Assembly (NCBI GenBank): GCA_944371605.1
Contig: CALVXU010000015.1
Span: forward strand, 9,686 to 73,685
Length of the DNA: 64,000 bases
Origin: an uncultured Bacilli bacterium
GTDB lineage: Bacteria > Bacillota_I > Bacilli_A > RFN20 > CAG-288
Direction: 5' to 3'
Position 1 is the stretch's first letter. Each line of letters opens with the position of its first letter. The translations under genes were made by a program, and so were the position numbers. Under the pieces are notes generated by a model. It was not told the origin of the DNA, did no database searches, and saw nothing but the letters and a program-made list of their open reading frames with translations. Shown here in pieces: positions 8,016 to 31,900 of this stretch.

Positions 8016-8074
8016 TTTGAATTGCCTCTTTTCTATAAATAATTAAACAACACGATCACCACTGCTTTAATAAT

Positions 8075-9299: not shown

Positions 9300-9559
9300 T
9301 AATATCACCTCATCTTGTTATGTCAATATTTTATTGACCCTCCCCATTTAATCAATAGTGATGTCGTCAATTAGAACTTTAAATGCATAAATTGTCATTT
9401 CGAGCAATACGTCTATTGATTATTAAATAAATTTACGTTATAATTTAAATAATATAATTTAAGAATAAATATTATATTTTTTATCAAAAAAACGATATAT
9501 AAAATAGCTGCATCATGTTTGAACCAAGCAGCTGGTTATCTATCATCACAAATCTTTGC

Positions 9560-9565
9560 TATAAT
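9560..9565 (+). promoter_or_regulatory. Extended -10 element (TGcTATAAT) upstream of the small FakA-like gene
   Basis: tttGCTATAAT gives a perfect TATAAT at 9560-9565 preceded by TGc, 21 nt upstream of the ATG at 9587. There is no convincing -35. Confidence 0.4.
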
Positions 9566-9586
9566 ATGAAAAAAACGGAGGCACAT

Positions 9587-9838
9587 ATGCTCGAATATCG
9601 TTATGACACTCAATTGCTTATCAATGGTGAAAATTTAGATGAAGAAGCAATCAATGAATACTTCACCAAAAATTTCAAAGGCGATTGTCTTTTAGCAGTT
9701 GGCGATGATAGATTGATCAAAATCCACTACCACACCAATGAACCATGGAAAGTATTAGAATACTGCCGAAGCCTAGGCGAAATATATGATATTGTCGTCG
9801 AAGATATGGACAGACAATCTCGAGGTTTAAAAGGATAA
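9587..9838 (+). CDS. Stand-alone homolog of the central domain of FakA/YloV (DAK2-fusion protein)
   Basis: The start ATG follows ACGGAGG. The product MLEYRYDTQLLINGE...GDCLLAVGDDRLIKIHYHTNEPWKVLEYCRSLGEIYDIVVEDMDRQ is collinear with the segment FGYCTQFLMQL...GNSIVCVSDGDLVKVHIHTLRPGNILTYAQQFGEFKMIKIDNMSEQ of the fakA gene at 62688-64000 in this same window. Confidence 0.7.
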   Translation: MLEYRYDTQLLINGENLDEEAINEYFTKNFKGDCLLAVGDDRLIKIHYHTNEPWKVLEYCRSLGEIYDIVVEDMDRQSRGLKG

Positions 9839-15704: not shown

Positions 15705-17528
15705 TCAATTTTTAATTGAGATATAACTGATATTACCATTTGTATGTGTGACTTTATAATAGAACTGAGCTAAATTAGTCCTAGTGAGAAATTCGATATT
15801 TTTAACTGAAGTATCTAAATTTAAGCCACGATTTCTGCTAAAAGAATAGCCGGTATAAAGAATTGTCCCTGTTGTATCCAATAGCAATGAGCACTGGTTG
15901 AAAGCATCCATAAACTTTCTGCTAAAGCGAGCATTTTCAAATTTTTCATTTGTGCTACTCACTTTTGATGTGACTTTGATTTCATCACTACTGGTCTCGA
16001 CTGCAGCTAGTAAATTATCTTTCGAATTATAAGTATCAAAGCGAGTGACACCAACATATCTTGTAGATAAGTCACCTATGATGTCATCAGAAGATTCATT
16101 GACATAATGATAATAACCAATTTTATCCTTATAAACAAAATTTTGTTCTGAATAAGTTTCGATTGAAGCAAAGCCATTACTCAATGGTTTACTTTCTAAA
16201 ATATAATCAGGTCTAGAAAAGAACGATTGTTTTTTACCATTACAATAAAATAAAAGTCCATCACCAGTCACATCATTGATTCCGATCATATTGCCTTCTC
16301 CAGCACAAGAGACCGAATAATAAGTATTCAATGAATTTGGAGATATCTCTTCAGTTTCTCCATCAGTCTCTTCTCCATCTTCAGAAGAAGAATTTAAAAA
16401 TGATTTGATATCTCCTGAACCTGTTATGGTAAAGGTATAAGAATTTTCTTCATCAACAGTTCCATCAGATTTTAATTTGAATCCAATGAATGAACTGCTA
16501 GCTAAAGATTTATGAGCCACGTGCCACCAAGTCGGTTTATGATATGAATAAGAAACATTCGCATCTAAGCTATTAAAAGTGACAGGAACATATTGTCGCA
16601 AATTAGTTTTTCCATCATCATTGAGGACAAACATCTCGCTTCTCACTATTCCTAATTTTGTATCATTACCTGTCGCTAAAACACATAGCGCTTTTTTGGT
16701 CGGAAGAACAAGGTATTGAACATTCTCACAATCTAAAAGTTTTTGTGAGAAACAATCGGTCGAAAGAATTTCATATTCCTTTTTATTGTCGTCGTCATCA
16801 TAAAAGATAGCTACGCCATTTTGATAAACAACACGATTCTGTCTATCAATATTATCCGTGTATGTCATAGATATATAATCATTAGTATATATGAAATCCA
16901 CCAAAGAAGCATCTTCATATGAAGATTTAGTCAATTCGTAATAAATAGGAAAGCCAGAATTACTATTTATGTTTGATTTTGTTTTTAGATAATAATCATC
17001 TTCTGGACCCGGATCATCATGATTGATAATCTGGGCGTTGATGGTATAACTATTAGTTATAGATATGGAAACATCAGAGAGATTTTCAAATGTAACTCCT
17101 AAATCGACACCTGTTGTTGTATAAAGAGCATAGTTATCCCCTAAGTCAATAGCTGCAAATGGCATATCATCATATATGTGAATAGGTTCATCTGAATATG
17201 GAACAGTCGTGAGATAACTTCTGCTTGTAATAGTATCGCCTAACAAGTAAATATCAACCGTATCTCCATGAGCTATATAACAAAAGCGAGAATAATTTAC
17301 ACCATCGTATTTAGGAAATTGTAAATCTTCAAAATATGAGTTGCTGACAATTGTTGGGGCACCTAAATTTGCATTTCCATTAAAGTCGAAGAAAGAGCCA
17401 TAACTATAAGAACTCTCAACTATATCAGTGTAATCTCTATCATGATAAGAATAACCTGGCGAGTCAAACAAACAAGATGTCAATAATAGTACTGATAAAG
17501 CACAAGGAATAATTGCAATTTTTTTCAT
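15705..17528 (-). CDS. Lipoprotein, last gene of the ESCRT-III/Vps4-like operon
   Basis: MKKIAIIPCALSVLLLTSCLF has a signal peptide with lipobox LLTSC. The 607-aa product is Ser/Thr/Tyr/Asp-rich and looks beta-rich and extracytoplasmic. It begins 18 nt after the preceding gene. Confidence 0.7.
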   Translation of the reverse strand: MKKIAIIPCALSVLLLTSCLFDSPGYSYHDRDYTDIVESSYSYGSFFDFNGNANLGAPTIVSNSYFEDLQFPKYDGVNYSRFCYIAHGDTVDIYLLGDTITSRSYLTTVPYSDEPIHIYDDMPFAAIDLGDNYALYTTTGVDLGVTFENLSDVSISITNSYTINAQIINHDDPGPEDDYYLKTKSNINSNSGFPIYYELTKSSYEDASLVDFIYTNDYISMTYTDNIDRQNRVVYQNGVAIFYDDDDNKKEYEILSTDCFSQKLLDCENVQYLVLPTKKALCVLATGNDTKLGIVRSEMFVLNDDGKTNLRQYVPVTFNSLDANVSYSYHKPTWWHVAHKSLASSSFIGFKLKSDGTVDEENSYTFTITGSGDIKSFLNSSSEDGEETDGETEEISPNSLNTYYSVSCAGEGNMIGINDVTGDGLLFYCNGKKQSFFSRPDYILESKPLSNGFASIETYSEQNFVYKDKIGYYHYVNESSDDIIGDLSTRYVGVTRFDTYNSKDNLLAAVETSSDEIKVTSKVSSTNEKFENARFSRKFMDAFNQCSLLLDTTGTILYTGYSFSRNRGLNLDTSVKNIEFLTRTNLAQFYYKVTHTNGNISYISIKN

Positions 17529-17546: not shown

Positions 17547-20500
17547 CTATAGTCCTGGATAATAGAAATTATATAGTAGTCCCATATAATCCTCTTTACT
17601 CATCATGAACTCGACTGCTAAAACTATTGGAACAATAATTCCTGCGATAGCAAATACTGAATTGACTGGATTTCTAAATTTGATGATGTGCGGATGATTG
17701 ACTAAATAGACTAATCCCATCAAAATAGTAGCTGCTAAAGGTAAATATTCAATCAATTTATAATCTGTCTGCACCATGAGATCTTCGAATAGATACACAA
17801 ATGGTATAGCTGCAAAAATTATTGTGAATATAATCGGAATAACTTTTGCCTTGATTCCGTTCCCTGAAAAAATCATCCAAGCGATACCTAGTGGTATAAC
17901 AATGAAAAGGTTGATATACGCATTAGCCATGCCGACGTTGACATGATTAAAATTGAGAAGAGTAAAAGCAAAGGAAGCGAGGATAGCAAAAATAGCATAG
18001 ACGATAGAAGAAGCTTTAAAGTAAGTGGCTGAGAGAGAGGACATGCTCTTTTTCTTATACCTGCCTATAACATTATTAGATTTTTGCTCAGTGGCTGTAC
18101 TTATTTTCGTTTTATACTTACTCAAGATATCAAAAAAGACATATTGTAGACTATCAAATTTCTTACCATTATATTTTCCAGAGCTGAGAGAAGCTAAGAA
18201 CTCAAATGACTCTTCTTTTGTGTTCTCGAAGAGAGTGAGATGAATTTTTTGAATCTCTTTCAAAGTTTTAATAATATTCTTTTTCTCATATTTAATACTC
18301 GCGATAGCAATATCTTGCCACACTTTATGAAAGTCTTTATTCAATGCTTGTGAAGAAGTTATTCTATTCGCTTTGATCAAGTCAGCATTCTTCTCATCTT
18401 CCTTTTGGCTCATAGAAATGATGTTATTATATTCATCTTCAGATTTACCAGTAGTATAATCAGCATTTTCTCCTAACAATAATAAGCCGAAATTGGTTTT
18501 GATGTGCAAAGCTGCTTTCAAATTGATCCAATAAGTCTCACTCGTATCTAATTGTAAAGCGATGAGTTTACCTATGAGTTCCTTAGCATTTTCAAACTTG
18601 CCAATCCATAGATTTCTTTCAGCAAAATCAGTGACAATAGTGTAATAATAATCATTAAATACATCATCGTCCATATATTCTTTAGCATTTGGTAAAATAG
18701 CTAAAACGTTGTTGAATAACAAATAAGCATTTTTACTTTTTTCTCTTAAATACTTAGTGCATAATTCAACGATAGTATTGACATAATTACCTTTAGAATT
18801 ATTGATTTTATAGCCACCTTTTAACATCATTTCAATGGTATTATTAACTTCTGATGGTTTATCAAGAATTTTAACTAAATCAGCATTATTAGAGATTTTA
18901 AACTTCACTAAAAGCTTGTTCCATAATGCAGTCGGATCAGCTTGGAATAACTCTAAAGCTTTATTTTGATATTTGATAGACGAATCAAATTTGCTAACTT
19001 TTCTGAATGCTGACGCGACCTGATCATAATAGCCGATGACTTTATTAGCACCACCGATAGTTAAAACATCATAGATAGCATCACTCATCTTATCCACATC
19101 TTCTACCAAATTCGAATATTTATTATTCTTACTATTAGAAGCGGCTATATGAGTCACAATAGCATTTTGTAGACTATAAGTGATATTTAGCTCATCTTTT
19201 TCATCAATATAACTCAATAAAAACTTATAAAGAGGTATCACATGGACAAATTGTTTAGAATCAGCAGAGTATTTAAGCTGTTCTTTTAAAATGTTGAGTT
19301 TTTCTTTGACATATTCCTCTGGTGCAAAAGAGAAGCATTTCCCTAAAACATCATTCAAGGTTTTCTCATTTAAACTAAAGGCAGTAGTAGACAACCCCAT
19401 CGTCGATGAGTTTTCATCTGCGACTCCATTATAAAGCAAATATAAGCACCAATATGCCTCATAATATTTGTTATTTTTTGCTGTTAAATCTCTTAAAGTT
19501 TTTTCAGCTGATTTACGATATTCAGCAGCTCTCTTCAATTTATTTTTGATTGTAAACGTGACCATCGATCGCATTTTTTCTTTAGCAGAGTCTAAAAGAA
19601 CTGCTTCATCAGCTGGGATGACAATCTTTTCTTTTGAGCCACCTAAAATAGTTTTTTCAATCTTTTTTTCGACGACTTGAATCGGTTTAATCTCGACTTT
19701 AATTTCTTTCTTTTTAACTTTAAACCCGACATTTCTTTGAATAGCCGACTTTAAGATTGCTTGCAAATTGTTATAAAATTGAGGATTGTATTGAAGAGCT
19801 TGCAATTTCTTTAGTTTTGCAGGGAATTGACTGATGTCAACCTTATTAGTGATGACTGGAACAAGAGCTAAGGCTGGATCTTCTTCTCTTCTTTTCAAAT
19901 ATCTCGACCACTCATTTTGAACCCATGGCTGAGTGATATAATCAACCTCATCAGTACAGATTAAAAGAAATACAGGAGCTGTCGATAAAGCATGATAAAT
20001 AATCGGTTCATATTCAGCACCGACTTTTTGCTTTAACGTCTCTTCCGAATAAAATACACGATATCCAGCCGCAGTCAAATTTTCATAAATATCTTTAGCT
20101 ACTTTGTCATCGGCAGTATAACCCTTGCCATCTAATGTGCGCACTTTTAATGATATAAAAATGTCATAAGGATCTTCTGAAGATAGCTTTTCATAAGCCA
20201 ATGAACGAATGTCTTCAAGTTCTTCAGCGCTCGCACGATAATTATCTGCTTGCTTACCTTTAGCATAGTTCAATGCTTGAATCAAGTTAGAATCTTCTAA
20301 ACAATTTCTGTCTGAGAGTCTATTTAAAGTTGGCTTATGGGTGGCATTACCATCTTCATCGACATATAAAATGCCATAATCACAAAGGAATTTTTGAAAA
20401 TATAATTCAGCTAAAATGTTTGTGTTATTCTTTTCATCATTTTTATATTTTACAATCAAATCATCAATATATTCTTCGCATTCTTCAAATTGCAATCTAT

Positions 20501-20663
20501 TTCTTTTTTCATACACACGTTGGATTTTTTCAGTCACATCGGCGTCAAAAGATATGACCGGAAATTCTCTATGACAATAGCTGCATTCAACAACACCATT
20601 GCTGACATCAGTGGACTGTATAGGCGCACCACAATAACTACAGGTCAAGTCTAACACTTCCAT
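17547..20663 (-). CDS. Zinc-ribbon / TIR-like domain / helical-repeat / 5-TM membrane protein
   Basis: N-terminal CSYCGAPIQ...CSYCHREF (CxxC...CxxC). The TIR-like block is YDIFISLKVRTLDGKGYTADDKVAKDIYENLTAAGYRVFYSEETL...VFLLICTDEVDYITQPWVQNEWSRYL (compare TIR_2: vFiSy...a..l...L...G..vf.d....G......i..al..a.v.l.l.s....S.Wv..E). About 550 aa of helical sequence follows. The C-terminal approximately 190 aa holds five hydrophobic helices. I set the start at the ATG at 20663, 8 nt after GGGGAGG; the track TTG is at 20669. Confidence 0.65.
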   Translation of the reverse strand: MEVLDLTCSYCGAPIQSTDVSNGVVECSYCHREFPVISFDADVTEKIQRVYEKRNRLQFEECEEYIDDLIVKYKNDEKNNTNILAELYFQKFLCDYGILYVDEDGNATHKPTLNRLSDRNCLEDSNLIQALNYAKGKQADNYRASAEELEDIRSLAYEKLSSEDPYDIFISLKVRTLDGKGYTADDKVAKDIYENLTAAGYRVFYSEETLKQKVGAEYEPIIYHALSTAPVFLLICTDEVDYITQPWVQNEWSRYLKRREEDPALALVPVITNKVDISQFPAKLKKLQALQYNPQFYNNLQAILKSAIQRNVGFKVKKKEIKVEIKPIQVVEKKIEKTILGGSKEKIVIPADEAVLLDSAKEKMRSMVTFTIKNKLKRAAEYRKSAEKTLRDLTAKNNKYYEAYWCLYLLYNGVADENSSTMGLSTTAFSLNEKTLNDVLGKCFSFAPEEYVKEKLNILKEQLKYSADSKQFVHVIPLYKFLLSYIDEKDELNITYSLQNAIVTHIAASNSKNNKYSNLVEDVDKMSDAIYDVLTIGGANKVIGYYDQVASAFRKVSKFDSSIKYQNKALELFQADPTALWNKLLVKFKISNNADLVKILDKPSEVNNTIEMMLKGGYKINNSKGNYVNTIVELCTKYLREKSKNAYLLFNNVLAILPNAKEYMDDDVFNDYYYTIVTDFAERNLWIGKFENAKELIGKLIALQLDTSETYWINLKAALHIKTNFGLLLLGENADYTTGKSEDEYNNIISMSQKEDEKNADLIKANRITSSQALNKDFHKVWQDIAIASIKYEKKNIIKTLKEIQKIHLTLFENTKEESFEFLASLSSGKYNGKKFDSLQYVFFDILSKYKTKISTATEQKSNNVIGRYKKKSMSSLSATYFKASSIVYAIFAILASFAFTLLNFNHVNVGMANAYINLFIVIPLGIAWMIFSGNGIKAKVIPIIFTIIFAAIPFVYLFEDLMVQTDYKLIEYLPLAATILMGLVYLVNHPHIIKFRNPVNSVFAIAGIIVPIVLAVEFMMSKEDYMGLLYNFYYPGL

Positions 20664-20665: not shown

Positions 20666-22105
20666 TCAATTCCTCCCCTTCAGTTTAAATTCAGGCATCT
20701 TTACTTTTTTAAACTCACTATCTAATAGGCATAGTTGATTTTTAATATCTTGTCTCATCCTAATAGCTCTCGAGAGACAATATTTATCGAACAAATCCAA
20801 GTCCACATCTGATACTTTGCGATAATGCGGGAATAAGATTTTCAAATACGCTGTCGCTATTCTCTTCACCGCACTGATATCACGAGTGTCACCATCAACT
20901 TCTTCTAAAAGTTCGTCGACCAAATGATCATAAACAGAATCGTTTCTAAAAAGATGTAGCATCTCAGTAAAATACTCACTGTTTAAAGATAAACCAGTCA
21001 CTTTCATCGACTCGCTCATCCGAGGAATGTCCCAACCACGAATGAAGCCATGAATACGATCTAATAAAGCCGAATCTCTAAAAATCATCGGCAGTTCAGA
21101 AAACATATCGACATTAGTATCCATATCAGCTTCTTTGATATTTCCTAAAAAAACCATTCCAGCATCAGCGATAGTCTTTTTAGTGCCAACAGCAAATTCA
21201 CCATTTTCTAGATATCCTTTCAATGCTCCTTGCATCTCATTCATATCTGGAAAACGAATGGTTTTTATCTCATCTAAAGCGACAACATCATAATTACCGA
21301 TGAGTCCGACCATATGATAGCGCATATCATAAAACAGCTTGGCTCTAGTCATCACACCACCAGAATTGAGCCATACATATTTAGATAAGCGAGAAAAAAC
21401 ATATGATTTTCCAGTCCCCTTCGGTGCCAGTTCAATCAGATTAAGACGCTTTTGAGCGAAAGGTAAAAGTCGAGAAATCATTGTCAGTCGTTCTTCTTCA
21501 TCAGCAAAAGAAGAAGCATTATAATCCATCGCACCCAAAACTAATTCAATCCATTCTTCGATAGAAAATTCTTTTCTGATATTACAAAAGTAATTCGCAT
21601 CTAATCTGTATGGCTTAAAGGCAGTAAACTTCTTAAGATTTATCTTTCTTAAAGTTTTTTTGCCTTGCACGTATTCCATTTTATTCAGAGTGACAACTCC
21701 CCAAAATTCACTATCTAAAGAAACTTTTTCTTCCTTGATTTTTTCCCATGCAAAATCAGATACAACAGTCGAATCAAAATCGACATCTAAATCCGGCATA
21801 GCAAAGGAAACATATCCTTCAGTGAGATTGATATTGATTTTTAATTTTGCTAAAAAAGTTATAGTACCAGAATTCAAAATAATCTCATCTAATAACAGCG
21901 GCCACGAAGTTTTATCCGGAATCAATTCCTTGACTTTTTCAGCTATCAAATTGATGTCATAAGTTCCGTCTTGATTAGCGTATTTTTTAACGATGTAATC
22001 ACGGATAAAAGCAGGAAGCGATAAAGAAGCGAAGAGTGAAGAAGCTTCTTTTTTATATAAAGACATCGGTTCAAAAAACTGTTGTAATTTTTCTTGAGTA
22101 CTCAT
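20666..22105 (-). CDS. BrxL-N-terminal / TIGR02688-like P-loop ATPase (no Lon-protease domain)
   Basis: Walker A LIELAPKGTGKSYVFS and Walker B YDVVALDEIK. The N-terminal region (LPAFIRDYIVKKY...KVKELIPDK...FLAKLKININLTEGYVSFAMPDL...FWGVVTL) is collinear with my recollection of the BrxL N-terminus (VPVYVLEYLLGMY...VK.IL..NYVRPDE...VIDKVTVKLNEK.D.YEA.L.NLG...GGIWC). At 479 aa it matches the TIGR02688 size class rather than full BrxL. Confidence 0.6.
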   Translation of the reverse strand: MSTQEKLQQFFEPMSLYKKEASSLFASLSLPAFIRDYIVKKYANQDGTYDINLIAEKVKELIPDKTSWPLLLDEIILNSGTITFLAKLKININLTEGYVSFAMPDLDVDFDSTVVSDFAWEKIKEEKVSLDSEFWGVVTLNKMEYVQGKKTLRKINLKKFTAFKPYRLDANYFCNIRKEFSIEEWIELVLGAMDYNASSFADEEERLTMISRLLPFAQKRLNLIELAPKGTGKSYVFSRLSKYVWLNSGGVMTRAKLFYDMRYHMVGLIGNYDVVALDEIKTIRFPDMNEMQGALKGYLENGEFAVGTKKTIADAGMVFLGNIKEADMDTNVDMFSELPMIFRDSALLDRIHGFIRGWDIPRMSESMKVTGLSLNSEYFTEMLHLFRNDSVYDHLVDELLEEVDGDTRDISAVKRIATAYLKILFPHYRKVSDVDLDLFDKYCLSRAIRMRQDIKNQLCLLDSEFKKVKMPEFKLKGRN

Positions 22106-22106: not shown

Positions 22107-23576
22107 TTAAATTCCTAAATCATTTTCTTCGATCGGAGAAGAAATCTTAATCATGAATGAACATACTACATTTTTATCGAAAACATCCACTTGATATTCA
22201 CCTGCTTTTTCAATCTTAAAAAGATTGCTCTTATAATTTTTGATATCTTTAGTAGTAGCTACTTTTTGCCCATTCACAGAAATATAAATTGAATCATGTT
22301 GACCGCTTAGATAAAACTCAACCTGATAAAGATTTGTAGGACTATAGTCAAGTTCTCTATTCTTAACTATCAGTTCTTCATCAAGCGGAATATCTTGCTT
22401 AACACGGTTGTTTAGTGATTGTGTAGAAACATCATGAAGAGTCTTTTGAGAGCTATCGACTCCAGCATATTTTTCATATTCTTTAATATCTTTGATGTCG
22501 ATGTGTTTCCTAATTTCATCTGCCTCTCTGATAAAGTCTGCCATAGTGATATTGACAATCGTGTCACCTTTAAACGAAGCTACTAATGCGCGTTCTTTGG
22601 CTTTATCACATAAAAGGAACATATCAGCTCCAGAAAAATTATCAGTTATAGCCGCTAATTGATTAATGTCAACATCAGAATCCAAAGGTAATTTACTTAC
22701 ATTCTTAATAAGCATTCTTTTTCTTTCTTCATAATTTGGTAGTCTGATATAAATCTTTGTAGAAAAGCGGCCACTTCTTAATGCAGCACTATCAATACTC
22801 CAAGGTTTATTAGTAGAACCTAATAACAACAGATTAGGATTCTTTCCTGTGAAGCCATCAATCTGCTGTAAAAATTCATTTACACGGCGATCGTTATGTA
22901 TATCTAGACCGCGTGAGGCGAATAGAGTATCCATCTCATCGATGAAAATGATGCTTCTTTCATCTTTGCCTACAGCCTCAAATAATGAAGCGATATTTTT
23001 TTCAGATTCTCCAACCCACTTAGAAACAATATCAGATGAACGGACTAGATAAAACTTAGCTTTCACTTCATGGGCAACTGCTTTCGCTAACATCGTTTTA
23101 CCAGTGCCAGGCGGGCCATATAACAAAACTCCGCCACCGCTTTGTTTCTGATAAATCTTATATTTTTCTGGATACATCAAAGGATAGATCATGGCGATCT
23201 TTATCTCTTCTTTCGCCTCATCTAAACCGATGATATCATCGAATGAAACGTCTGGTGCTTCAGTGCATTGCCATATTTTTTTATCATCATCGCTATTAGC
23301 TTTATTTTTAATACCATTTGCTTTGTTTGTAGGAGCACGAGATGTATTCATGTTTTCTAATGTTAAATCATCAGCATATTTGACAAGTCTATTGGCTTTT
23401 TCTATCCGGGCTTTTTTTAATTCAGTTGTGGAAGATTTGCTCGCTAAAAGCAACTGCTGAGCAGCTAAATAATAATTGCGCTTAGCAAGATCAAGATTAC
23501 CATTAGCTTCATATTGTTTGGCTAAACGAAGATAATGGTCATATTTGTCCATTAAAAAGCTAACATTATTACCCAT
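22107..23576 (-). CDS. MIT-domain AAA+ ATPase of the Vps4/katanin/spastin (meiotic) clade, with an extra C-terminal beta-rich domain
   Basis: The N-terminus YLRLAKQYEANGNLDLAKRNYYLAAQQLLLASK...KARIEKANRLVKYADDL is MIT-like. The AAA core is VLLYGPPGTGKTMLAKAVAHE, SSDIVSKWVGESEK (compare Vps4 SSDLVSKWMGESEK), IIFIDEMD, GSTNKPWSIDSAALRSGRFSTKIYIRLP (compare Vps4 [25 protein letters not shown]). Confidence 0.8.
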   Translation of the reverse strand: MGNNVSFLMDKYDHYLRLAKQYEANGNLDLAKRNYYLAAQQLLLASKSSTTELKKARIEKANRLVKYADDLTLENMNTSRAPTNKANGIKNKANSDDDKKIWQCTEAPDVSFDDIIGLDEAKEEIKIAMIYPLMYPEKYKIYQKQSGGGVLLYGPPGTGKTMLAKAVAHEVKAKFYLVRSSDIVSKWVGESEKNIASLFEAVGKDERSIIFIDEMDTLFASRGLDIHNDRRVNEFLQQIDGFTGKNPNLLLLGSTNKPWSIDSAALRSGRFSTKIYIRLPNYEERKRMLIKNVSKLPLDSDVDINQLAAITDNFSGADMFLLCDKAKERALVASFKGDTIVNITMADFIREADEIRKHIDIKDIKEYEKYAGVDSSQKTLHDVSTQSLNNRVKQDIPLDEELIVKNRELDYSPTNLYQVEFYLSGQHDSIYISVNGQKVATTKDIKNYKSNLFKIEKAGEYQVDVFDKNVVCSFMIKISSPIEENDLGI

Positions 23577-24156
23577 TGAGTTTTTCCTGTAGTTTCTTAT
23601 CTAAATCAGCAAGAGATGCCTCGACATCATCCTTTTTGCCGTCTTGATTAATTTCTTCATTTATTAAAGACATGATTTCATCATTAGAAATATTACTGGC
23701 TTCAGAGACATTAGAGAATGAATCTTTAGAATCATCTAAAAACAGTTCCATTCTCTCTTGTTGTTTTTCAGTAGAAGCCATCGCTAAGCTGAATTGCTTA
23801 GAGACTTGTGCGAATTGCTTGTCATCTGTGAGTTTGACCATATCCTTAGAAAGAGAAGACATTCCATTCAAAAATTCAGACGTGGTTTGCAACATATCTT
23901 TCAAAGAGACCATGATTTCAAAATTGATTTTCATCTCACGAATCTTTTTCTCTTGTGCTAATGCACTTTTTAAAGCAGAAATCGCTAAAGATAGCTCATT
24001 ATCTAAGCCATGCAGCTTAGCTTCTTTAGCTTTTTCAATATAAATCTGTTTTTGCTCTTCTAACTTCTTCAATTGTTTCGTCATTTGAGCGATAGTTTTC
24101 TTCAAGGTTAACTTTTTTTCAAATTCTTTTTCTTCCTTACTTTTAAATATTGACAT
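23569..24156 (-). CDS. ESCRT-III (CHMP/Snf7)-like coiled-coil protein with C-terminal MIM-like helix
   Basis: 195 aa with a basic N-terminal half, an acidic C-terminal half and a long helical hairpin pattern. It is collinear with CHMP2-type proteins; for example, FAQVSKQFSLAMASTEKQQERMELFLDD aligns with LPQIQKIMMEFERQAEIMDMKEEMMNDAIDD. The C-terminus ASLADLDKKLQEKLNG resembles the MIM1 motif (CHMP2A ADLEERLKNLRR). Confidence 0.6.
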   Translation of the reverse strand: MSIFKSKEEKEFEKKLTLKKTIAQMTKQLKKLEEQKQIYIEKAKEAKLHGLDNELSLAISALKSALAQEKKIREMKINFEIMVSLKDMLQTTSEFLNGMSSLSKDMVKLTDDKQFAQVSKQFSLAMASTEKQQERMELFLDDSKDSFSNVSEASNISNDEIMSLINEEINQDGKKDDVEASLADLDKKLQEKLNG

Positions 24157-24727
24157 CTTGAGACTCCTCTTTCATATCTGATGAACTATTAGGTAAATCA
24201 TCACTTTCTTCAAACATCGCTAAAAGTTGATCATCGCTTTCATTGACCCCGTATATCTTATCATCTGGAGTATAAGACGCATTGACTTCATTAAAGACAT
24301 CATCAGCACTAGTCATAATCTCTTCACTCTTCACTTTAGTCTGCAATGCGCCATTCAAAAATTTAGCAAGGTTCTTTTGATCTGATAATAAATCCTGCAA
24401 AGATACATCTGAAGCAGCTTTAATAAAATCTTTATCGTCTAAAGCATCTTTAAGCTTTTTCAAAAGTTGTAAATTATAGAGCAAGTATAATGAACGTTGG
24501 ACTAAAGTTTGACGATCTTTTTTTAACGCTTCTATCTTCTTTGCATATAGAAGTCTAATATCACGATTCTTCTCTACTTTGCCTTTTTCTAATAGAGCTT
24601 GTTCTTCACGTGATTTTTGAATTATCTGCTCTTCAAGTGCTTGTTCACGATTATCTAATTCGATGATAGCATCAACAACTTCTTCACGTTTAAGCTTTTT
24701 AAATTTATTCTTCTTAAACGGCCACAT
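24143..24727 (-). CDS. ESCRT-III (Snf7)-like coiled-coil protein
   Basis: 194 aa with a basic N-terminus (MWPFKKNKFKKLKREE). It follows a Snf7-like pattern: ai.eL...e.LE....k.eee...L...G.....r....aKk.e.Lkk....l......l.n.q. The C-terminal tail is acidic (DDQLLAMFEESDDLPNSSSDMKEESQD). Its start overlaps the upstream stop in TGATG. Confidence 0.55.
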   Translation of the reverse strand: MWPFKKNKFKKLKREEVVDAIIELDNREQALEEQIIQKSREEQALLEKGKVEKNRDIRLLYAKKIEALKKDRQTLVQRSLYLLYNLQLLKKLKDALDDKDFIKAASDVSLQDLLSDQKNLAKFLNGALQTKVKSEEIMTSADDVFNEVNASYTPDDKIYGVNESDDQLLAMFEESDDLPNSSSDMKEESQDVNI

Positions 24728-25095
24728 CAGAATTTTTCCTCTTTAGTATCAATAGTAGTGACCAAGTTCTTTCTTTTCGTGATTGCTAATTTTAAATCAT
24801 TGATGCAGGAGATCAGCTTTTCACTAGCAAAATCAGTTTTTTTCAAGCACTTATTAACTTCAATCATCAAATCACCAATAGTGTTTTGGATATTTCTATC
24901 TGCCTTTTCACTATCAGCACGTGGGATGAGATATTTGATTTCCTCTCTCAAAGTTTTTAATTCCTTAGAAAGGTTGTCGTCTTTTCCTTCGACTAAATCA
25001 ACTAAAATATTCATCGAAGAAAGCATCTCAGAGATGCGATTCTTTGACTTAACCTCATCTTTATATGCAGAATTTTTATTTTTAAAAAAGAACAT
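24727..25095 (-). CDS. Small helical protein of unknown family (operon gene 2)
   Basis: An ORF of about 122 aa, predicted helical by composition. I moved the start to the ATG at 25095, 8 nt after GGAGG; the track start at 25110 contains the SD itself. Confidence 0.5.
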   Translation of the reverse strand: MFFFKNKNSAYKDEVKSKNRISEMLSSMNILVDLVEGKDDNLSKELKTLREEIKYLIPRADSEKADRNIQNTIGDLMIEVNKCLKKTDFASEKLISCINDLKLAITKRKNLVTTIDTKEEKF

Positions 25096-25119: not shown

Positions 25120-26235
25120 TCATCGAAGTTTTTGTCCACAATTAGGACAGAAGAGAGCATTTTCTGGAACACGAGCATGACAAGAAGGACACACACCATC
25201 TTCGATCAACTTAGTACCATCATTAGGACAGAACTTCATATTCCCACCAAATTTATTATGACAAGTGGGACAGACCATAGTGATAGAATGGGAACCAGAA
25301 ACAGGTTTAGCATTAGGAACTGATTTATTTCCATCTGTAGGCCATCCTAAAATTTTTAAAACATCATAATACTTATCAATATCTGAACTTTGTAAATCAT
25401 GTAAAATTTTCTCTCTTTCAAAGTTCTTATCATCTAATCTTTCTAATTCGGCGGCTATTTCCTTTGCATCTTTTTTCTCTTGCTCTTTATCTTTTAATTC
25501 TTTACGTCGTTTTTCGAGAGCTTGAATTTCAACCTCACTCGGAGAGATATTGCCGATAGTGAATGAGCAAACTTCTAAGCCATAATCATCACTGAACATC
25601 TGATTGATCTGTGTCTTAATATTTTCTGCGATATCTAATTTATATAAAGTTATTTCTTCAAAAGGAATATGTTTTTCCTTGAGCGTTTTATAAATATTAG
25701 GTTCAATGATAGATAAAAGTCTTTGCAATAAACGGATTTGTAAATCAGAGATTGTAAAATTCTTATCTGCTCCAACTAATTCTTGATAGAATTTTTGAGA
25801 ATTCTTTACACGTACTTCAAATTCACCAAATGCTCTCACATGAACCAAAATATCAGTAGCTTCATCGCGGAATGCGAAAGGCGTGCTAGTTCCCCATTTC
25901 ACAAGCAATCTAGCTGTTTTAGAAATAAAAACTAAATCAACTGAACAAGCACCTACTTTTCTAGCACTGAAAATTCCTTTTTTATAGTCAAATATCGGAT
26001 ATCTTCCGCCTTGTAAAACGTTCATCAGCATCCCGTCTTTCACAAACACCACTTCATGCGTTTGTGGAACAATAATTTCAGCTTCTGGATTTAAAACATC
26101 TGCTTGAAATCTCCAGAAAAGTGAATTGTTATCACCTTCAAATTTGATTTCTTTTAGATTTTTTAAATCCTTCTTATTCTTCTCATTGATCGAATCATCA
26201 TTGTTATTCAAATTAAACACACTTCTTTTTGCCAT
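25120..26235 (-). CDS. SPFH/Band-7-like protein with C-terminal double zinc ribbon (YdjI / COG4260-like)
   Basis: SLFWRFQADVLNPEAEIIVPQTHEVVFVKDGMLMNVLQGGRYPIF and LVFISKTARLLVKWGT fit the YdjI/virion-core-like SPFH family. The C-terminus CPTCHNKFGGNMKFCPNDG...CPSCHARVPENALFCPNCG holds two zinc ribbons. I moved the start to the ATG at 26235, 6 nt after GGGGGT. Confidence 0.7.
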   Translation of the reverse strand: MAKRSVFNLNNNDDSINEKNKKDLKNLKEIKFEGDNNSLFWRFQADVLNPEAEIIVPQTHEVVFVKDGMLMNVLQGGRYPIFDYKKGIFSARKVGACSVDLVFISKTARLLVKWGTSTPFAFRDEATDILVHVRAFGEFEVRVKNSQKFYQELVGADKNFTISDLQIRLLQRLLSIIEPNIYKTLKEKHIPFEEITLYKLDIAENIKTQINQMFSDDYGLEVCSFTIGNISPSEVEIQALEKRRKELKDKEQEKKDAKEIAAELERLDDKNFEREKILHDLQSSDIDKYYDVLKILGWPTDGNKSVPNAKPVSGSHSITMVCPTCHNKFGGNMKFCPNDGTKLIEDGVCPSCHARVPENALFCPNCGQKLR

Positions 26236-26520
26236 AGTGTACCCCCATACACACATATTTTATTTATTATATTAGAAAAAAAGTATACACACAATTAAAA
26301 ATATGTAACTTTAGTAGAATCCTAGTATAAAAATTCTCATTTTCAAATTTTACTAACTAAATGTTCCTAATGCTAAAATTAAATACTAAAAAACATAACC
26401 CATGTTGAATAAAATCTGAAAATTTGCATATATGATTGTGTGCCTACATATTACGTTTCGACATAGTAATCACTGTAATTATTTTTATCATGTAAAGTTT
26501 TAGAAGCTTACTGCTTAATT

Positions 26521-28218
26521 TTACAAAAGTTTGAGTACTGACAAAAAATCATCTAACTTAATAAAATTGACATCATGTTTGATTTTTTCTTTTAAGAAAC
26601 GACTTTCATCTTCATCTTTACAAATTAAAATATCAACATCTTTAGTTTCCAAAGCCAAAATATACCCTTGAGATTCAATTCTCTTACAAAGATCAATACA
26701 ATCTAAATCAGATTTTTGAACATCATTAGAAAAGGCGAATCTTTTACCTATAAATTTTGGATCGGATAATATTGTCTTATATTTTTCATCGCTCTTTCTT
26801 TCTCTTCTCAACTTGTCAAAAGGCTTTTCGATTACTCCTTTAAGCCTCGAAATATATTCCCTTAGTTTTCTTTCATCTGCGTTTAATTTTGTGACTTCAA
26901 TATCCCACTTGCTAGTAATTATGCATTCTAGACCAGCTTGCCTAATTAAATCCCCTAGCAACAACTTAGAATTAAAATGCTTCTCAATTAAATACTTTAA
27001 AGCAAGCATCGTAGCCATGGCATCATAAGAGGCTTCATGAAAATTGATATTTTTTGTTTCATCCTCAGGAAGATATTTTTTAACTATTGCTTCAAGTCCT
27101 CCACTCTCTTTTAATAACTGTTTAAAGAGAATATGAACATCTATAGCAAAAATATCCAATGGATTATTTCCATATCTCCTATAAGAATAATCAAGATAAT
27201 CAAAATCGTTTTTGACATCAAATCCAAAAATCAATATATCTTTTTGATTAAAAAGATAGTTAATATAATCGATATAATAATCAAACTCAGGGGCTTTTCT
27301 ATATATTTCGTAGTTATCTTTTTCGTACCTTAAATGAAGGTCTTTTTGATTTTTTCTACCAATGAGAGCAAAATTATAATTTCTCCCATTGCCAGGATTG
27401 ATTATGTATTCACCTCTCATTGGTCTCTGAAAATTTGATGTGACTATAGTCCAACCAAACTCACATATTTTACCTTCGTCGTTAAAACAGTTAGCACATT
27501 CCGTATCAAAAAAGATATATCGTTTTACATTATTCCAATTAGTATTATTAAAAATGTTCTCCTTTACTTGTTTTGACTTGAGCTTTACATATTCTTTTTT
27601 AAAGCTATTAGACGAAGTTGTATAGCACCATGATGAAAAGATATCCTTTGATAAGCATTCACTTAACGTAAATCTGTATTCATTACATATTTTTTCAAAA
27701 ACTTTAAAAGCTAATAAAGCATTAGTCTTTGAATAATGTTCTTTAATCTTAATAACATCATCATTTTTCGGAAAAAGATTATTTATTGCGTTACTTAAAG
27801 ATGGTATGACAAGTTTCTTCTTAGTAATTCTATAGAAAGTTTGTACATCAAAAGCTTTTATATTAATGTCGATTAACTCATATCTTTTACAATCAGATGA
27901 TATGTAAAATAAATCATTCTTAATATCCCAACCCATTACTTGGTTTTCAGGGTTAGTGAGCAACGACTTAATTTTTTCATAATAGTAGGGGAATTTATTT
28001 TGTTTCCTATAAAACTCATAATCATTTTCAAAGTGAGCAAGTTCAATTTTTCTTTCAACAACATCAGAAAAATCTTCATTTTCACCAGGATTGATGAAAA
28101 AATTGCCTTCTTCAATAATCTGAAAAGAATCATTAACAAGTACATAGCCAAATTGAGCAATTTTAGGTTGAATGTTATGTTTATTAGCCACTTCACAATC
28201 TATAAATAATAAATTCAT
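26521..28218 (-). CDS. Tandem DEDDh (DnaQ-like) 3'-5' exonuclease domains plus a C-terminal BRCT-like region
   Basis: Domain 1 has LLFIDCEVAN (ExoI), MGWDIKNDLFYI (ExoII) and EHYSKTNALLAF, where ExoIII has N in place of the usual D. Domain 2 has IFFDTECANC, FGFDVKNDFDYL and FHEASYDAMATMLAL, an intact H-x4-D. The tail is FIGKRFAFSNDVQKSDLDCIDLCKRIESQGYILALETKDVDILIC. Confidence 0.65.
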   Translation of the reverse strand: MNLLFIDCEVANKHNIQPKIAQFGYVLVNDSFQIIEEGNFFINPGENEDFSDVVERKIELAHFENDYEFYRKQNKFPYYYEKIKSLLTNPENQVMGWDIKNDLFYISSDCKRYELIDINIKAFDVQTFYRITKKKLVIPSLSNAINNLFPKNDDVIKIKEHYSKTNALLAFKVFEKICNEYRFTLSECLSKDIFSSWCYTTSSNSFKKEYVKLKSKQVKENIFNNTNWNNVKRYIFFDTECANCFNDEGKICEFGWTIVTSNFQRPMRGEYIINPGNGRNYNFALIGRKNQKDLHLRYEKDNYEIYRKAPEFDYYIDYINYLFNQKDILIFGFDVKNDFDYLDYSYRRYGNNPLDIFAIDVHILFKQLLKESGGLEAIVKKYLPEDETKNINFHEASYDAMATMLALKYLIEKHFNSKLLLGDLIRQAGLECIITSKWDIEVTKLNADERKLREYISRLKGVIEKPFDKLRRERKSDEKYKTILSDPKFIGKRFAFSNDVQKSDLDCIDLCKRIESQGYILALETKDVDILICKDEDESRFLKEKIKHDVNFIKLDDFLSVLKLL

Positions 28219-28221: not shown

Positions 28222-28986
28222 TTAATTTCTATTTTCCTTATAATCTTTGTTCTTTTTTATAACAGCTTCTAGTAATTTAGGAGTTACACATTTTTCTTTT
28301 GCTTGCTTTACAATTGACGAAATATCTTTTGGAAGACAGCTTCCTCCATATCCTCTATTATTCTTATAGACAAAAGTATGACTTGAACCAATTCTAGGAT
28401 CTGCAATCCAAATTTCTCTAGCTTTGTTATATGAAACTCCTAGTTTTTGACAAATATCATACATCTCATTGCAAAAAATCACTTTAGTTGCTAAATATGC
28501 ATTTTCCATGTACTTAGCCATTTCGACAGTATCACTATCTCCTTGATATATTTTTACATTTGAATTAATAACACTTTGGTAAACTTCAATAGCCATATCA
28601 ATTGCATCTTGTTCGCCACCAAAAGATAGCCAAGAACGATCAGATAAATTGGCAAAAGGATGCGCAACAGTTTCACCATAATATTCAGGTTGAAAAACTA
28701 TCTTCTTATGGTATTTATTGACCATCTCTTTTGTAAAACCAACTTTAACAGTTGAACGTAAAATAAGCACTGGACATGAGCACATAGAAATTACTTCTTC
28801 AACTGCTGAAGTATCACAACTCCCATCCTCATTCATAGGCGTAGGAACACAAATAAAAGCAGCATCGCATTTATTAATTTCTTCCATACTTCCTATGTTT
28901 TTGAATTTATCATATAACACTGCTTCTTTAAAAAGATTACTCATTGCAGTTCCAACATGTCCCACTCCAACAATTCCAACTTTCAT
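28222..28986 (-). CDS. UDP-glucose/GDP-mannose dehydrogenase-family protein lacking the C-terminal UDP-binding domain
   Basis: MKVGIVGVGHVGTAM (Rossmann GxGxxG), FICVPTP and the catalytic Cys box GYGGSCLPKD. At only about 254 aa it is short. The start ATG at 28986 overlaps the TAA of the upstream giant gene in TAATG; the track start at 29001 contains the GGAGG. Confidence 0.7.
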   Translation of the reverse strand: MKVGIVGVGHVGTAMSNLFKEAVLYDKFKNIGSMEEINKCDAAFICVPTPMNEDGSCDTSAVEEVISMCSCPVLILRSTVKVGFTKEMVNKYHKKIVFQPEYYGETVAHPFANLSDRSWLSFGGEQDAIDMAIEVYQSVINSNVKIYQGDSDTVEMAKYMENAYLATKVIFCNEMYDICQKLGVSYNKAREIWIADPRIGSSHTFVYKNNRGYGGSCLPKDISSIVKQAKEKCVTPKLLEAVIKKNKDYKENRN

Positions 28987-31900
28987 TATTTTTTCCTCCA
29001 TTTAATTCCATGATATTTTTTTGTATACAAGTTAAGATATTTAGATAATAAATTGATAACTTCATCCACATTATTAGCTGAGTAAATACAATCTTCTAGT
29101 ATGGCTGGATATCTAATTCTGTCATCTAGTTTTCGACCTGCTAGTTTCTTTCCATATCCATCAACATTATTAAATGCAATTATCAATTTATACTTTTGCC
29201 AAGCCATAGCCATTTCAGATAAAGTGCCAGCACCACCACCAATAACAACTACAGCATTTGCATCAACTACTAGACCATTTCGTAATAAATCAAGCCCAGT
29301 TGGCACGACAACATCAGCGAAATTATTCGCTTCTTCAGTATTAGTTGATGGAATAATAGCTATCGTTGAACCTTTTCTATATTTTGGAGATGATCTAGCT
29401 CCTTTAAAGACTGCTTCCATTACTCCACCTAAGCCGCCAGTTTGAATGTTATATCCTAGTTCTGCCAATTTTTTACCTAGTTCAAAAGCGGTTTTGTATT
29501 TTGTTGAATTATCTAAAACTGATCCGTCTCCTATTACAGCAACAGTTGGATATTGGCTTAATATTTCAGCTCTACTTAATAACCATTTTTGCATTTTTTG
29601 TTGAAAATTATCTTTATAAATGCCTAGTTTATTTTTACTTTCATCAGGCAAATCAAATAGATAAATTTGTTCTTTTATAAAAGCTGGTGAATAAGCGTGT
29701 TCAATTATTGGAAGCATCATTGCATAATCAGTTCTAATATCTATATATTGGCTGTCTTTCATTAAATTATCTTGAATAAATTCACATAGATAGCGCCTAA
29801 AACATTTAGGACGGAGCCATATATTATCTCCATTCCTTTCCCAACTATTTTTAAATGAAACTAAATCATATTTTTTTAATGGCTTATCTAGTCTAAAGCA
29901 GTTACCAATAGTAACATCATTACCACTATCAAATTTTTCTTTAATAATACTCAAAGCATCGTTTCTAATGAGAGCATCATCACTATCAATGTTGATAATT
30001 ATACTTTTTGGATTAATGCAAATATGCTTATAAAAGAATTCAAAGTTTGCCAAAGAGCCAACTCTGGTCTCGTTTTTAATATAAATAATTTTATCTTTCC
30101 AAATAGGTGAATAAGTTGCTAGCATTCTAATATATTCACTTGATGAAATATTAGTTGAATTATCATCTATATATACAATTTGAAAATTACTAAAACTTTG
30201 CATTTCTAAAGAATCAAATAATCTTTTTAGTTTAATTGTTGGTGTATTTCTTCCCCTAATGAAAACAACTACTTCTTTTGTTGTTTGAGGTATCCATTGA
30301 TAAGACTCGCATAAGTTAACATTATCTAATTGAATTAATGGAACAAACCTATTTTCAACTTGTCTTCTAACTATACTTATAAAATTCTTAACTTTCTTAG
30401 TTTCATTTTCTGGATGTATGAAAAATAAATGATTTGAAATTAGTCTTAGTGATTCCACTTTATTTAAAGATTTATCTAAAGCACGATTCCAACTATCTTT
30501 TAGAACACCATCTATAAGTTCATTATCTAATGGTAACTTTGTGCTTAACCTCTTTAAATCAATAAATGACGATCTAACTTCAGTTCTATTTGAAAGTATA
30601 GGGCTTCCATTTCTGTTATGAGCTATGCTTAAGGATAAAGTTAAAGCATTATTCTTTTTCAGAATATTTAAAGCCTCAGATAGACTTTCCTTACCATCAT
30701 TAAAATAAATTATGTCAGAATCTGTTTGGAAAGCGTATCTTGTTTTGCAAGATTCAAAACCATTTAAGATTGCTAATAGATTTTGTCCGTTTACACTATG
30801 TGCATCAATTGATTTTAATGAAAAATACTTTTTATAAAGTAAATAATCTTTAGGCAAATCTAATGATACAACTCTATCAATATAGCCATCATCTTTAAGA
30901 CGGCTAATTTCAGCTTTAAACTTTTCTATATTATCTTCATCATATCTACGTACTCTTTTCACATTTTCAATATCAATAGTCAAAATTCTTTCGGCAAATA
31001 CATCTTTTCTTTCTAATTGGGAAACAATATGCTTAACATTATCATAAATAGTATTAGCTTCCATTGAATTAGCTTTAACTATTAAAGTGCAATCAGTTAA
31101 AATATTTTTATTAGATTTATAACAATCAAAAATCAAATGTTCTCCGATAAAAGAGAGCGAAGATGTGTCTATTCCCTTATCTTCATATACCGCTTCAATA
31201 TTAAAGCCATATTTATTTAATAATCTTTCATAATAAGCTAGCGGTCGATGATATTCCTCTCTTTTTCCATAAATAGTAACTTTTTTATACAAAGAGCTTT
31301 TTTCATATTTACCATCATAATTTTTAATTGAAGTTACAGTATGATTTACATTATCAAAAAAAGGATTACAAATACTTAAAATAAATCTCCCATCATTTAA
31401 AACTAATTGATTAATTTTACTTAAAATAAAGTCATTGGTTTTATTATCAGTACAGCAAAGCACTTTATTGCAATTTACAAAATCAAAAATACGCTCTACA
31501 TTATTAATATCATCAATAACAGTAACTTTATTAGACGCTCTTTCATTTATTGTTTTTTTATCTATATCAAAAACATATGTGTTAAATTTATCAGCGATGG
31601 CATTAGCTATTCTACATTTTCCTGCACCATAATCTAAAACGCTGCTAGGATGATGACTATTTATTAAACTTAAAATGATTGGGTCATGAGTCTGTTCTTT
31701 TCTTTTATCATTTATTAAATCGTAAAATACATCTAGAGCATAATTAAATGCTTTATTTTCTTCTTGATAACTTTTAGAAATTAGAATTCTAAATTGATGT
31801 TTGTTGAGATTTGAAAACTTAATCATTTGATAGCAACGCTCAACACTCTTTTTATAATCTTTTTCGCTATAAGATACGATATCTCTTCCTAAATCTACAT

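Follow-up and report, generated by a model that had tools for sequence, protein, structure and literature searches.

Bacterial TIR domains have been described in a series of NADases and effectors that includes Thoeris ThsB, AbTir-type proteins, SPARTA, TIR-STING and TIR-SAVED. On the membrane side, the archaeal 'Meth_adaptin' ESCRT loci include a protein composed of an SPFH domain, a coiled coil and a zinc ribbon (PMC10936438), and in Bacillus subtilis PspA, which is ESCRT-III-like, is brought to membranes by the SPFH protein YdjI (cited in PMC10936438). A Vps4-like ATPase appears to be absent in bacteria according to one account (PMC7619361), and another describes bacterial VPS4-like ATPases that adjoin a 'TPR + 6TM' protein (TM, transmembrane), with the Snf7 gene displaced (PMC11237479). 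These descriptions of archaeal ESCRT, PspA-YdjI and VPS4-like/TPR-6TM loci are the closest to the locus reported here, and none includes a TIR protein. The locus lies in a window of 64,000 nucleotides from an uncultured Bacilli bacterium (contig CALVXU010000015.1), in which the gene at 17547-20663 on the minus strand, the target of this analysis, encodes a TIR protein of 1038 residues. The target belongs to the TIR_2 family; neither its architecture nor its set of partners has a description in the literature searched, and its gene is invariably part of a conserved cassette of co-directional genes.

With the bacterial TIR effectors the target has in common a TIR_2 domain with the W-x-x-x-E motif, and by analogy with them its TIR would need to oligomerise for activity. 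Unlike them, it has no ThsA, prokaryotic Argonaute (pAgo)/APAZ, cyclase, STING or SAVED partner; it adds a zinc ribbon and an adaptor before the TIR, and a TPR solenoid of about 510 residues and five TM helices after it; and its partners are SPFH, ESCRT-III-like and Vps4-like proteins. Assignment to a known defence system was considered and rejected in each case. For Thoeris, there is no PADLOC match to ThsB in the target and no match to ThsA, SIR2 or Macro among its neighbours. For CBASS and Pycsar, Pfam and PADLOC reveal no CD-NTase, pyrimidine cyclase, STING, SAVED or cyclic-nucleotide (cNMP)-binding match in the target or the operon. For SPARTA and the short pAgo systems, just the TIR fold matches (8qlp_E), and the operon has no Argonaute or APAZ. 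For BREX, a 479-residue neighbour passes the BrxL cut-off, yet it is optional in the family and has no companion BREX gene; PglX, PglZ, BrxA, BrxB and BrxC were not detected in the scanned window genes or in related loci.

The loci with VPS4-like ATPases, like the window, place a Vps4-like AAA protein beside a TPR and multi-TM protein, the proteins being compared by description only (PMC11237479). The window differs in having two helical proteins of about 195 residues, at least one of them judged ESCRT-III-like, in the zinc ribbon and TIR of its TPR-TM protein, and in the SPFH gene that heads the operon. Archaeal ESCRT/Cdv systems resemble the window, with its one or more candidate ESCRT-III-like subunits, its candidate Vps4/CdvC-like ATPase and its SPFH-coiled-coil-zinc-ribbon protein. 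However, the host of the window is bacterial, CdvA, ESCRT-II winged-helix and adaptin-like components were not detected, and the cassette has in addition the TIR protein, a BrxL-like ATPase and, in some loci, a trypsin-like protease. The pspA-ydjGHI operon of B. subtilis, as the window appears to do, combines a Band_7_1 SPFH protein bearing a C-terminal zinc ribbon with a membrane-acting protein of the ESCRT-III superfamily. In contrast to it, the window has no Pfam match to YdjG or YdjH (TPM), no operon protein matches PspA_IM30 in Pfam, and there is a dedicated AAA ATPase together with the TIR protein.

The full-text literature searched holds no SPFH and TIR system, and no bacterial ESCRT and TIR system (most subscription papers lie outside that literature, and a description elsewhere is possible). 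The sole co-mention of SPFH/ESCRT and TIR was an artefact of a reference list. Nor was a description found in that literature of the wider SPFH-linked family of zinc-ribbon-TIR-TPR-TM proteins to which the target is related.

The TIR protein and its family

The target is encoded by an open reading frame (ORF) of 1038 codons. Its ATG is at 20663, with GGGGAGG 8 nucleotides upstream, and its stop codon is at 17547-17549; around its start, the ORF shares a few bases with the end of the gene before it. Full-length homologues of 1002-1044 residues and 24-52% identity (P0002-P0007) come from independent metagenomes, and the target is therefore a real gene, which specifies a TIR protein with a probable membrane anchor. 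An AlphaFold2 (AF2) model built on a 32-sequence alignment has a mean predicted local distance difference test (pLDDT) score of 80.7, with high confidence for residues 1-310 and 350-860, low confidence for residues 311-349, and values of about 50 over the last 160 residues. The gene and its parts are as follows.

17547-20663, minus strand: whole gene, encoding in order a zinc ribbon, an adaptor, a TIR domain, a TPR-like solenoid and a five-TM region (ORF, homologues, AF2)
20574-20642, minus strand: zinc ribbon, C8-x2-C11 ... C27-x2-C30 (translation, cysteine conservation)
20184-20543, minus strand: helical and beta-hairpin adaptor, residues 41-160 (conservation, AF2)
19743-20174, minus strand: TIR_2 domain, residues 164-307 (Pfam, Foldseek, phmmer)
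19911-19913, minus strand: codon of E251, the candidate catalytic glutamate, in the motif W247-V-Q-N-E251-W (alignment, conservation)
19608-19733, minus strand: low-confidence linker, residues 311-352 (pLDDT below 50 for residues 311-349)
18072-19607, minus strand: TPR-like alpha-solenoid of about 510 residues, residues 353-864 (AF2, Foldseek, sequence matches)
17598-18020, minus strand: five TM helices, residues 882-1022 (hydropathy)

The Pfam family TIR_2 (PF13676) matches residues 184-293 with E=1.1e-10 and 42.5 bits, against a gathering cut-off of 28. Residues 166-307 are modelled with pLDDT above 90 as an alternating beta/alpha, flavodoxin-like fold (strands at 168-171, 203-205, 231-236 and 266-271; helices at 184-198, 215-228, 246-261 and 296-307). 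The best TIR match found by Foldseek is the SPARTA TIR-APAZ protein 8qlp_E (prob 1.0, root-mean-square deviation 3.5 A over 151 columns), and the flax L7 TIR 7vu8 was also matched (TMt 0.51). TIR matches rank only 36 and 49 in the Foldseek list for the whole model, where TPR proteins dominate. Similarly, searches of the PDB with the whole protein or the 32-sequence profile gave marginal TIR matches and were dominated by designed TPR proteins, and the phmmer alignments to L6, L7 and the bacterial TIR 7uxr were obtained only with the TIR region alone as query.

In these alignments, phmmer pairs target ITQPWVQNEWSRYL with L6 ADSKWCLMELAEIV and with 7uxr VKKNWTEYELNGMV. Residues W247 and E251, which belong to the segment WVQNEWSR encoded at 19902-19925, fall on the Trp and Glu of flax L6 'SKWCLMEL' and of 7uxr 'KNWTEYEL'. 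In plant TIRs the Glu of this motif is the catalytic residue. W247, N250, E251, W252 and R254 are invariant in the 32 aligned family members, and W-x-x-x-E is present in 134 of 137 relatives (7/7 close, 113/113 wider and 14/17 distant). The invariance of W247 and E251 and the near-universal motif argue for a retained active site; judged from these alignments, the TIR is apparently active and of the NAD-cleaving type, with an intact catalytic motif. Compared region by region, the TIR is the part of the protein with the highest identity (42-75%) and the TM region the part with the lowest (10-45%).

The zinc ribbon, CSYCGAPIQSTDVSNGVVECSYC, has the spacing CSYC-x15-CSYC. Its CxxC...CxxC pair is retained by all seven full-length homologues and, across the wider family, by most members, and weak profile matches relate it to the zinc ribbons of ribosomal L37ae, RpoP and LysW. 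The adaptor that follows contains a TPR-like helix pair and an invariant YVDEDG...PT.NRL motif, and it accompanies this TIR always. Within it, R54, G97, P111, T112 and R115 are invariant in the 32 aligned sequences, and AF2 models it at high pLDDT (helices 41-55, 59-74, 81-95, 125-133 and 137-160; strands 98-101 and 110-113). The linker on the other side of the TIR is probably disordered, as judged from the model. It bears a conserved sequence, IKPIxVxExKIEKTxFGxxKEKIVI, with 47-78% identity among five closer homologues and with V330 and I335 invariant, and this looks like a candidate short docking motif for a partner. Residues 353-864 are all helical in the model, with about 25 helices and pLDDT mostly above 85. 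Their best PDB fold matches (Foldseek) are TPR superhelices, namely Ctr9, TTC7B, P58IPK, CTPR, OGT and IFIT, and residues from about 545 to 590 match consensus TPR proteins by sequence.

The hydrophobic segments of the C-terminus lie at residues 882-900, 910-928, 941-959, 970-988 and 1003-1021, with hydropathy peaks of 1.74-2.57, and the region is modelled as helical with low confidence (pLDDT about 50). Lys and Arg residues precede TM1 and follow TM2 and TM4, and acidic residues follow TM3; from these loop charges, the topology is probably N-in/C-out. Relatives of the same size as the target retain 4-5 C-terminal TM segments at 10-45% identity. Since no other part of the protein is so poorly conserved, the five helices are read as probably a membrane anchor rather than a pore.

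These results bear on a sequence-only reading of the same gene that preceded this analysis. It had placed a zinc ribbon at the N-terminus, a TPR-like helical array behind the TIR and five hydrophobic helices at the C-terminus. The ribbon was confirmed where it had been placed, with its Cys pairs conserved in homologues, the array was borne out by the all-helical model and the TPR superhelix matches, and hydropathy located the five helices where they had been expected. Its TIR call holds, given the Pfam score above cut-off, the AF2 fold and the Foldseek matches to solved TIRs, and the conserved catalytic Glu that it had anticipated was found in E251, which aligns with the Glu of NADase TIRs and does not vary in the 32 sequences. 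Its author had not recognised the domain order, and the architecture indeed matches no PADLOC or NCBIfam model, the target protein itself having no match in either collection. The idea that the TM part acts as an abortive-infection effector was not upheld; this was rejected for the poor conservation of that region (10-45%, against 42-75% for the TIR). Its proposals that the protein is the sensor or effector of the operon and ties membrane state to NAD+ chemistry stay conjectural.

The family can be drawn narrowly or widely. A profile of the C-terminal 714 residues, used in an exhaustive search of 1.84 billion representatives, found only 30 proteins at E<=0.001, about 20 of which have some 900-1100 residues and 4-5 C-terminal TM segments. 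Thus, proteins with the zinc ribbon-TIR-TPR-multi-TM layout make up a small, coherent and rare family. At the other end of the protein, residues from about 6 to 300 align as one block, with 30-40% identity, to at least 111 other proteins, and these N-terminal 300 or so residues (zinc ribbon, adaptor and TIR) are one unit common to hundreds of gut Clostridia proteins. Of 16 distant relatives subjected to a Pfam scan, 12 have TIR_2. The number of TM segments in relatives ranges from 1 to 8 and many relatives bear repeat domains; many have a single TM helix followed by BspA-type leucine-rich repeats (LRR), Listeria-Bacteroides repeats, DUF6273 or RCC1.

For the wider family of zinc-ribbon-TIR-TPR-TM proteins, there are at least 572 metagenomic matches, often tandem paralogues (L017-L099; e.g. 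L017:3894-9791). The relatives with one TM segment and repeat domains have a receptor-like topology, in which the TIR is cytoplasmic. An analogy can be made here with Toll-like receptors and SARM1, since in the wider family, too, a cytoplasmic TIR is combined with a single TM segment and surface-type repeats (LRR, Listeria-Bacteroides, DUF6273). Unlike in Toll-like receptors, the TIR is N-terminal, so that the order is inverted, the target has no ectodomain, and nothing there corresponds to the zinc ribbon, the TPR or the SPFH partner. The analogy is not meant to suggest homology outside the TIR fold. In one genome, P0304 (556 residues) and P0310 (461 residues), on one NCBI contig of 279 kb, seem to represent a near-identical gene split in two ORFs, which could be due to a frameshift, a pseudogene or an assembly error.

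The cassette around the TIR gene

The target gene is one of eight co-directional genes that run from 26256 down to 15705 with overlaps or with gaps of at most 18 nucleotides. In the order of the cluster, they are:

25120-26256, minus strand: protein with an SPFH domain (Band_7_1), a coiled coil and a double zinc ribbon, first gene of the operon (Pfam)
24727-25095, minus strand: helical protein of about 122 residues (conserved position after the SPFH gene)
24143-24727, minus strand: A194, a helical protein of 194 residues (621 homologous clusters)
23569-24156, minus strand: B195, a protein of 195 residues judged ESCRT-III-like with moderate confidence (profile, hhalign, AF2, Foldseek)
22107-23576, minus strand: Vps4/CdvC-like classical AAA ATPase with a C-terminal DUF7862 (Pfam, NCBIfam)
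20666-22105, minus strand: BrxL-like AAA+ protein of 479 residues, optional (Pfam, TIGR02688, PADLOC)
17547-20663, minus strand: the TIR protein
15705-17528, minus strand: predicted lipoprotein of 607 residues, last gene of the cluster (signal peptide ending LLLTSC)

A promoter scan of the cluster gave results no better than those from shuffles, and no terminator was found at its 3' end; the ends of the operon are therefore not defined by the scan.

The set of SPFH, small, two approximately 195-residue, AAA and TIR proteins recurs around homologues of 40-52% identity in differing chromosomal settings. The linkage is seen in independent lineages and gene orders (L001, L003, L006, L007, L008, L013, L015 and L100). 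It extends to members found only with the profile, as in L013, which has an added trypsin-like protease, and in L015, where the gene order is altered. The short contig of P0007, the homologue with 24% identity, shows only the genes for the TIR protein, an SPFH protein, a small protein and a trypsin-like protease. In a variant that is very common in Clostridia (L100-L102; L100:5779-14535), the function is divided between two zinc-ribbon-TIR-TPR-TM paralogues, one with WVKNEW and the other degenerate, with Arg/Gln replacing Trp/Glu. This variant also encodes a trypsin-like protease whose N-terminus bears a zinc ribbon like theirs, and a gene for a RelA_SpoT small alarmone synthetase lies just upstream of the L100-type cassette. 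The target gene is thus a fixed component of the conserved cassette, and the BrxL-like AAA+ protein, the trypsin-like protease and the lipoprotein are its optional members. The genes that flank the cassette vary between loci, as expected of an accessory cassette. Its hosts are Bacilli and Clostridia represented by metagenome-assembled genomes, and the species-representative genomes that carry the target gene are those of uncultured Bacilli.

Neighbourhoods in the wider family were counted in 80 fetched metagenomic loci. A gene for a Band_7_1 SPFH-zinc-ribbon protein is present in 57 of the 80, always on the same strand, and in 37 of the 43 with at least 2.5 kb of upstream sequence; a conserved TM protein of 228 residues is present in 53 of the 80. 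Genes for the AAA or the approximately 195-residue proteins were found in none of the 80. The core, therefore, consists of the SPFH protein, the small or TM protein and the TIR-TPR-TM protein, and the cassette in the window is an elaborated version of that core. One of the SPFH-linked loci of the wider family sits amid GmrSD, HTH/Gp49 and DUF87-nuclease genes.

Wherever the flanks of a relative of the target are available, an SPFH orthologue is likewise found beside it. The SPFH protein of the window matches Band_7_1 (E=1.1e-24), DZR and Zn_Ribbon_1 in Pfam. The protein of about 122 residues that follows has no family in a Pfam scan and is related to the C-terminal part of the TM protein found in other variants; across the family, the helical protein in this position has about 110 residues.

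B195 belongs to no Pfam family. A profile built from 16 sequences has the ESCRT-III protein CHMP2A as its top PDB match (E=0.037), colinear over residues 17-149 against 14-142, the ESCRT-III core; when aligned to the CHMP2A core with hhalign, E falls to 8.5e-4 over 120 columns, yet the probability is just 24%. The AF2 model of B195 has five helices, two of them very long, and its top Foldseek matches are CdvB, CHMP2A (prob 0.97, TMt 0.64), CdvB2 and CHMP1B, with weak E-values of 0.3-0.6. Together, profile and predicted fold indicate, with moderate confidence, that B195 is ESCRT-III-like. A194, the product of the preceding gene, is basic at its N-terminus and bears a strongly conserved acidic motif, DDxLLAMFE, at its C-terminus. 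It has no relevant PDB match in two profile searches, and in hhalign it is colinear with the B195 family over 145 columns at a level that is not significant; its alignment to CHMP2A is not significant either. The sequence-only reading had presumed SPFH and ESCRT-III-like neighbours. The conserved linkage stands, and so, with moderate confidence, does the likeness to ESCRT-III for B195, whereas A194 gave no significant match.

In the AAA protein, Pfam clearly identifies one AAA domain (AAA, E=1.5e-38) with its lid (AAA_lid_3). The best NCBIfam match of the protein is archaeal CdvC, NF041006 (E=1.4e-60, residues 13-370), at a score below the equivalog cut-off. An MIT domain (PF04212) is matched weakly at the N-terminus (E=0.0059, residues 16-65), where searches of the PDB also give weak matches, with E of about 0.35, to the CdvC MIT 2w2u and the MIT 2mpk. 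A Vps4_C match is faint and is found in the L101 orthologue of the AAA protein only. The AAA core is about equally similar to the D2 domain of Cdc48, and in a phmmer search of the PDB Cdc48/p97 comes first only via two summed domains; Vps4 and Cdc48 are not discriminated.

The BrxL-like protein matches BrxL_N and BrxL_ATPase in Pfam (E=2.4e-105) and BrxL in PADLOC (E=2.7e-174), and it passes TIGR02688 with 388 bits against a cut-off of 329. A Lon protease domain was not detected in this short protein. Its gene is absent from L001/L002 and L015. The gene for the lipoprotein, which belongs to no known family, starts 18 nucleotides past the target stop, and an orthologue 3' of a target homologue is present only in L001/L002.

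Possible functions of the TIR protein

The reading that we favour, and on which we are evenly divided, is that the target is a clustering-activated, NAD+-consuming TIR effector (NAD, nicotinamide adenine dinucleotide) docked to an SPFH/ESCRT-III-like membrane machine. To our knowledge, the TIR domains of bacteria, plants and SARM1 cleave NAD+ only in higher-order arrays. In the scheme proposed here from sequence, the TM helices would hold the TIR protein in the inner membrane, and the TPR solenoid and/or the linker motif would dock it to the SPFH/ESCRT-III-like lattice. Perturbation of the membrane, by phage attack or envelope damage, would drive assembly of this lattice, which would concentrate the TIR domains into the ordered arrays required for activity. 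These arrays would cleave NAD+, and the cell would be arrested or killed. The Vps4-like ATPase would disassemble the polymer and so reset or restrain the response.

The cassette seems to combine ESCRT-III-like and Vps4-like proteins with an SPFH scaffold and with a TIR whose catalytic motif is intact. Should these components work together, bacteria would provide a model of ESCRT-III dynamics powered by ATP, membrane state would be directly linked to NAD+ chemistry, and TIR immunity would gain a new branch that is based at the membrane and common in the microbiota of the human gut and the rumen. A more sweeping proposal, advanced tentatively and as something rather short of probable, is that gut and rumen Firmicutes possess a true ESCRT-type machine, its ESCRT-III-like polymers driven by a Vps4-like ATPase on an SPFH scaffold, and that this machine is wired to a membrane TIR NADase, that is, a new membrane-surveillance immune or stress system elaborated from a larger undescribed SPFH-TM-TIR family.

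A number of points weigh against the clustering-activated effector. Identity with ESCRT-III is of moderate confidence for B195 and unproven for A194, and the docking of the solenoid or linker to partners is pure conjecture. Similarity of the TIR to solved TIRs is weak (best E=0.025; phmmer, PDB), and only the BrxL-like and AAA proteins of the operon match any PADLOC model. Several loci are flanked by genes for ribosomal S6/S18, SSB or tRNA synthetase or by division-cluster genes, and such housekeeping flanks are equally compatible with a cell-biological role. Relatives occur in 3 of 2.9 million viral contigs, a count listed with these points that is uninformative on defence.

The housekeeping neighbourhoods of several loci lead to the alternative that the target is a membrane adaptor, in which the TPR-5TM part would be a site-specific receptor or nucleator for ESCRT-III-like polymers and the Vps4-like ATPase, and the TIR an oligomerisation scaffold or NAD(H) sensor. 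Its work would then be membrane repair, vesicle release or division, with the TIR not a killing enzyme. The published 'TPR + 6TM' protein beside bacterial VPS4-like ATPases resembles the C-terminal two thirds of the target (PMC11237479), and SPFH-coiled-coil-zinc-ribbon proteins are also included in archaeal ESCRT loci (PMC10936438). The cassette is, in addition, widespread in gut Firmicutes, with the 621 clusters of A194 and with P0268 in 428 collection blocks. However, a pure scaffold would have no need of the near-universal catalytic-type Glu and Trp, and the TIR is the most conserved region; the distribution of the cassette is patchy, with flanks that differ per lineage; and conflict systems are where a BrxL-like ATPase and a protease would more typically be expected as companions. 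We hold the housekeeping adaptor to be unlikely, if still a credible alternative to the effector.

Signals are generated by Thoeris ThsB and by plant TIRs, and the intact catalytic motif would also allow the target TIR to make an ADP-ribose-derived messenger, such as an isomer of cyclic ADP-ribose (cADPR), that switches on the BrxL-like ATPase, the trypsin-like protease or ESCRT-III-like effectors. The operon does include enzymes that could be such effectors. Against this, no SLOG, Macro, SAVED, STING or SIR2 sensor domain was detected in conserved members of the operon, the SLOG protein encoded at 28986-34409 is not conserved beside the cassette elsewhere, and the core of the wider family (the SPFH, TM and TIR proteins) leaves no obvious receiver, all of which makes a messenger improbable.

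Finally, C-terminal multi-TM modules are common abortive-infection effectors and 4-5 TM helices are retained across the family, but it is very improbable that the five helices kill, with the TIR/TPR part as a sensor that opens them, since the TM region is the least conserved (10-45%), aligns poorly between subfamilies and comprises anywhere between 1 and 8 segments in relatives, with extracellular repeat domains present instead in many of them, and therefore fits an anchor or topology element better than a conserved channel.

Other features of the window

The window is bacterial chromosome of 34% GC, with rpoB and rpoC at 35239-42963. Immediately upstream of the operon, across a gap of 264 nucleotides, lies the gene for a protein of 565 residues (26521-28218, minus strand), one region of which resembles a DEDDh 3'-5' exonuclease (PADLOC DEDDh, E=1.3e-11); this protein and the cassette are not conserved together. 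The ORF of 259 residues at 28222-29001 (minus strand), which overlaps the end of the ORF for the SLOG protein, has only the N-terminal and central domains of a UDP-glucose/GDP-mannose dehydrogenase and is probably a truncated gene. The SLOG protein itself (28986-34409, minus strand), 2.7 kb upstream of the operon, has 1807 residues and combines a family-2 glycosyltransferase and a methyltransferase with a C-terminal SLOG cluster-4 domain. A link between it and the TIR was considered and rejected, since it does not accompany the cassette in other loci.

On the other side of the cassette, at 9515-9838 (plus strand), an ORF of 107 residues, probably a gene fragment, corresponds to the middle domain alone of a FakA-like protein. 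Weak N-terminal matches to camelysin (Peptidase_M73) are seen in two proteins encoded at 6591-8683 (minus strand). In the segment 9966-14176 (minus strand), a protein of 635 residues of the AAA_5 (McrB-like) type matches the PADLOC candidate PDC-M26A (E=1.6e-38) and is flanked by overlapping ORFs of 507 and 267 residues without a Pfam family. The segment may be a separate defence system beside the cassette, and the position of the PDC-M26A-matching protein, 2.3 kb downstream of the cluster, was counted in favour of the effector reading.

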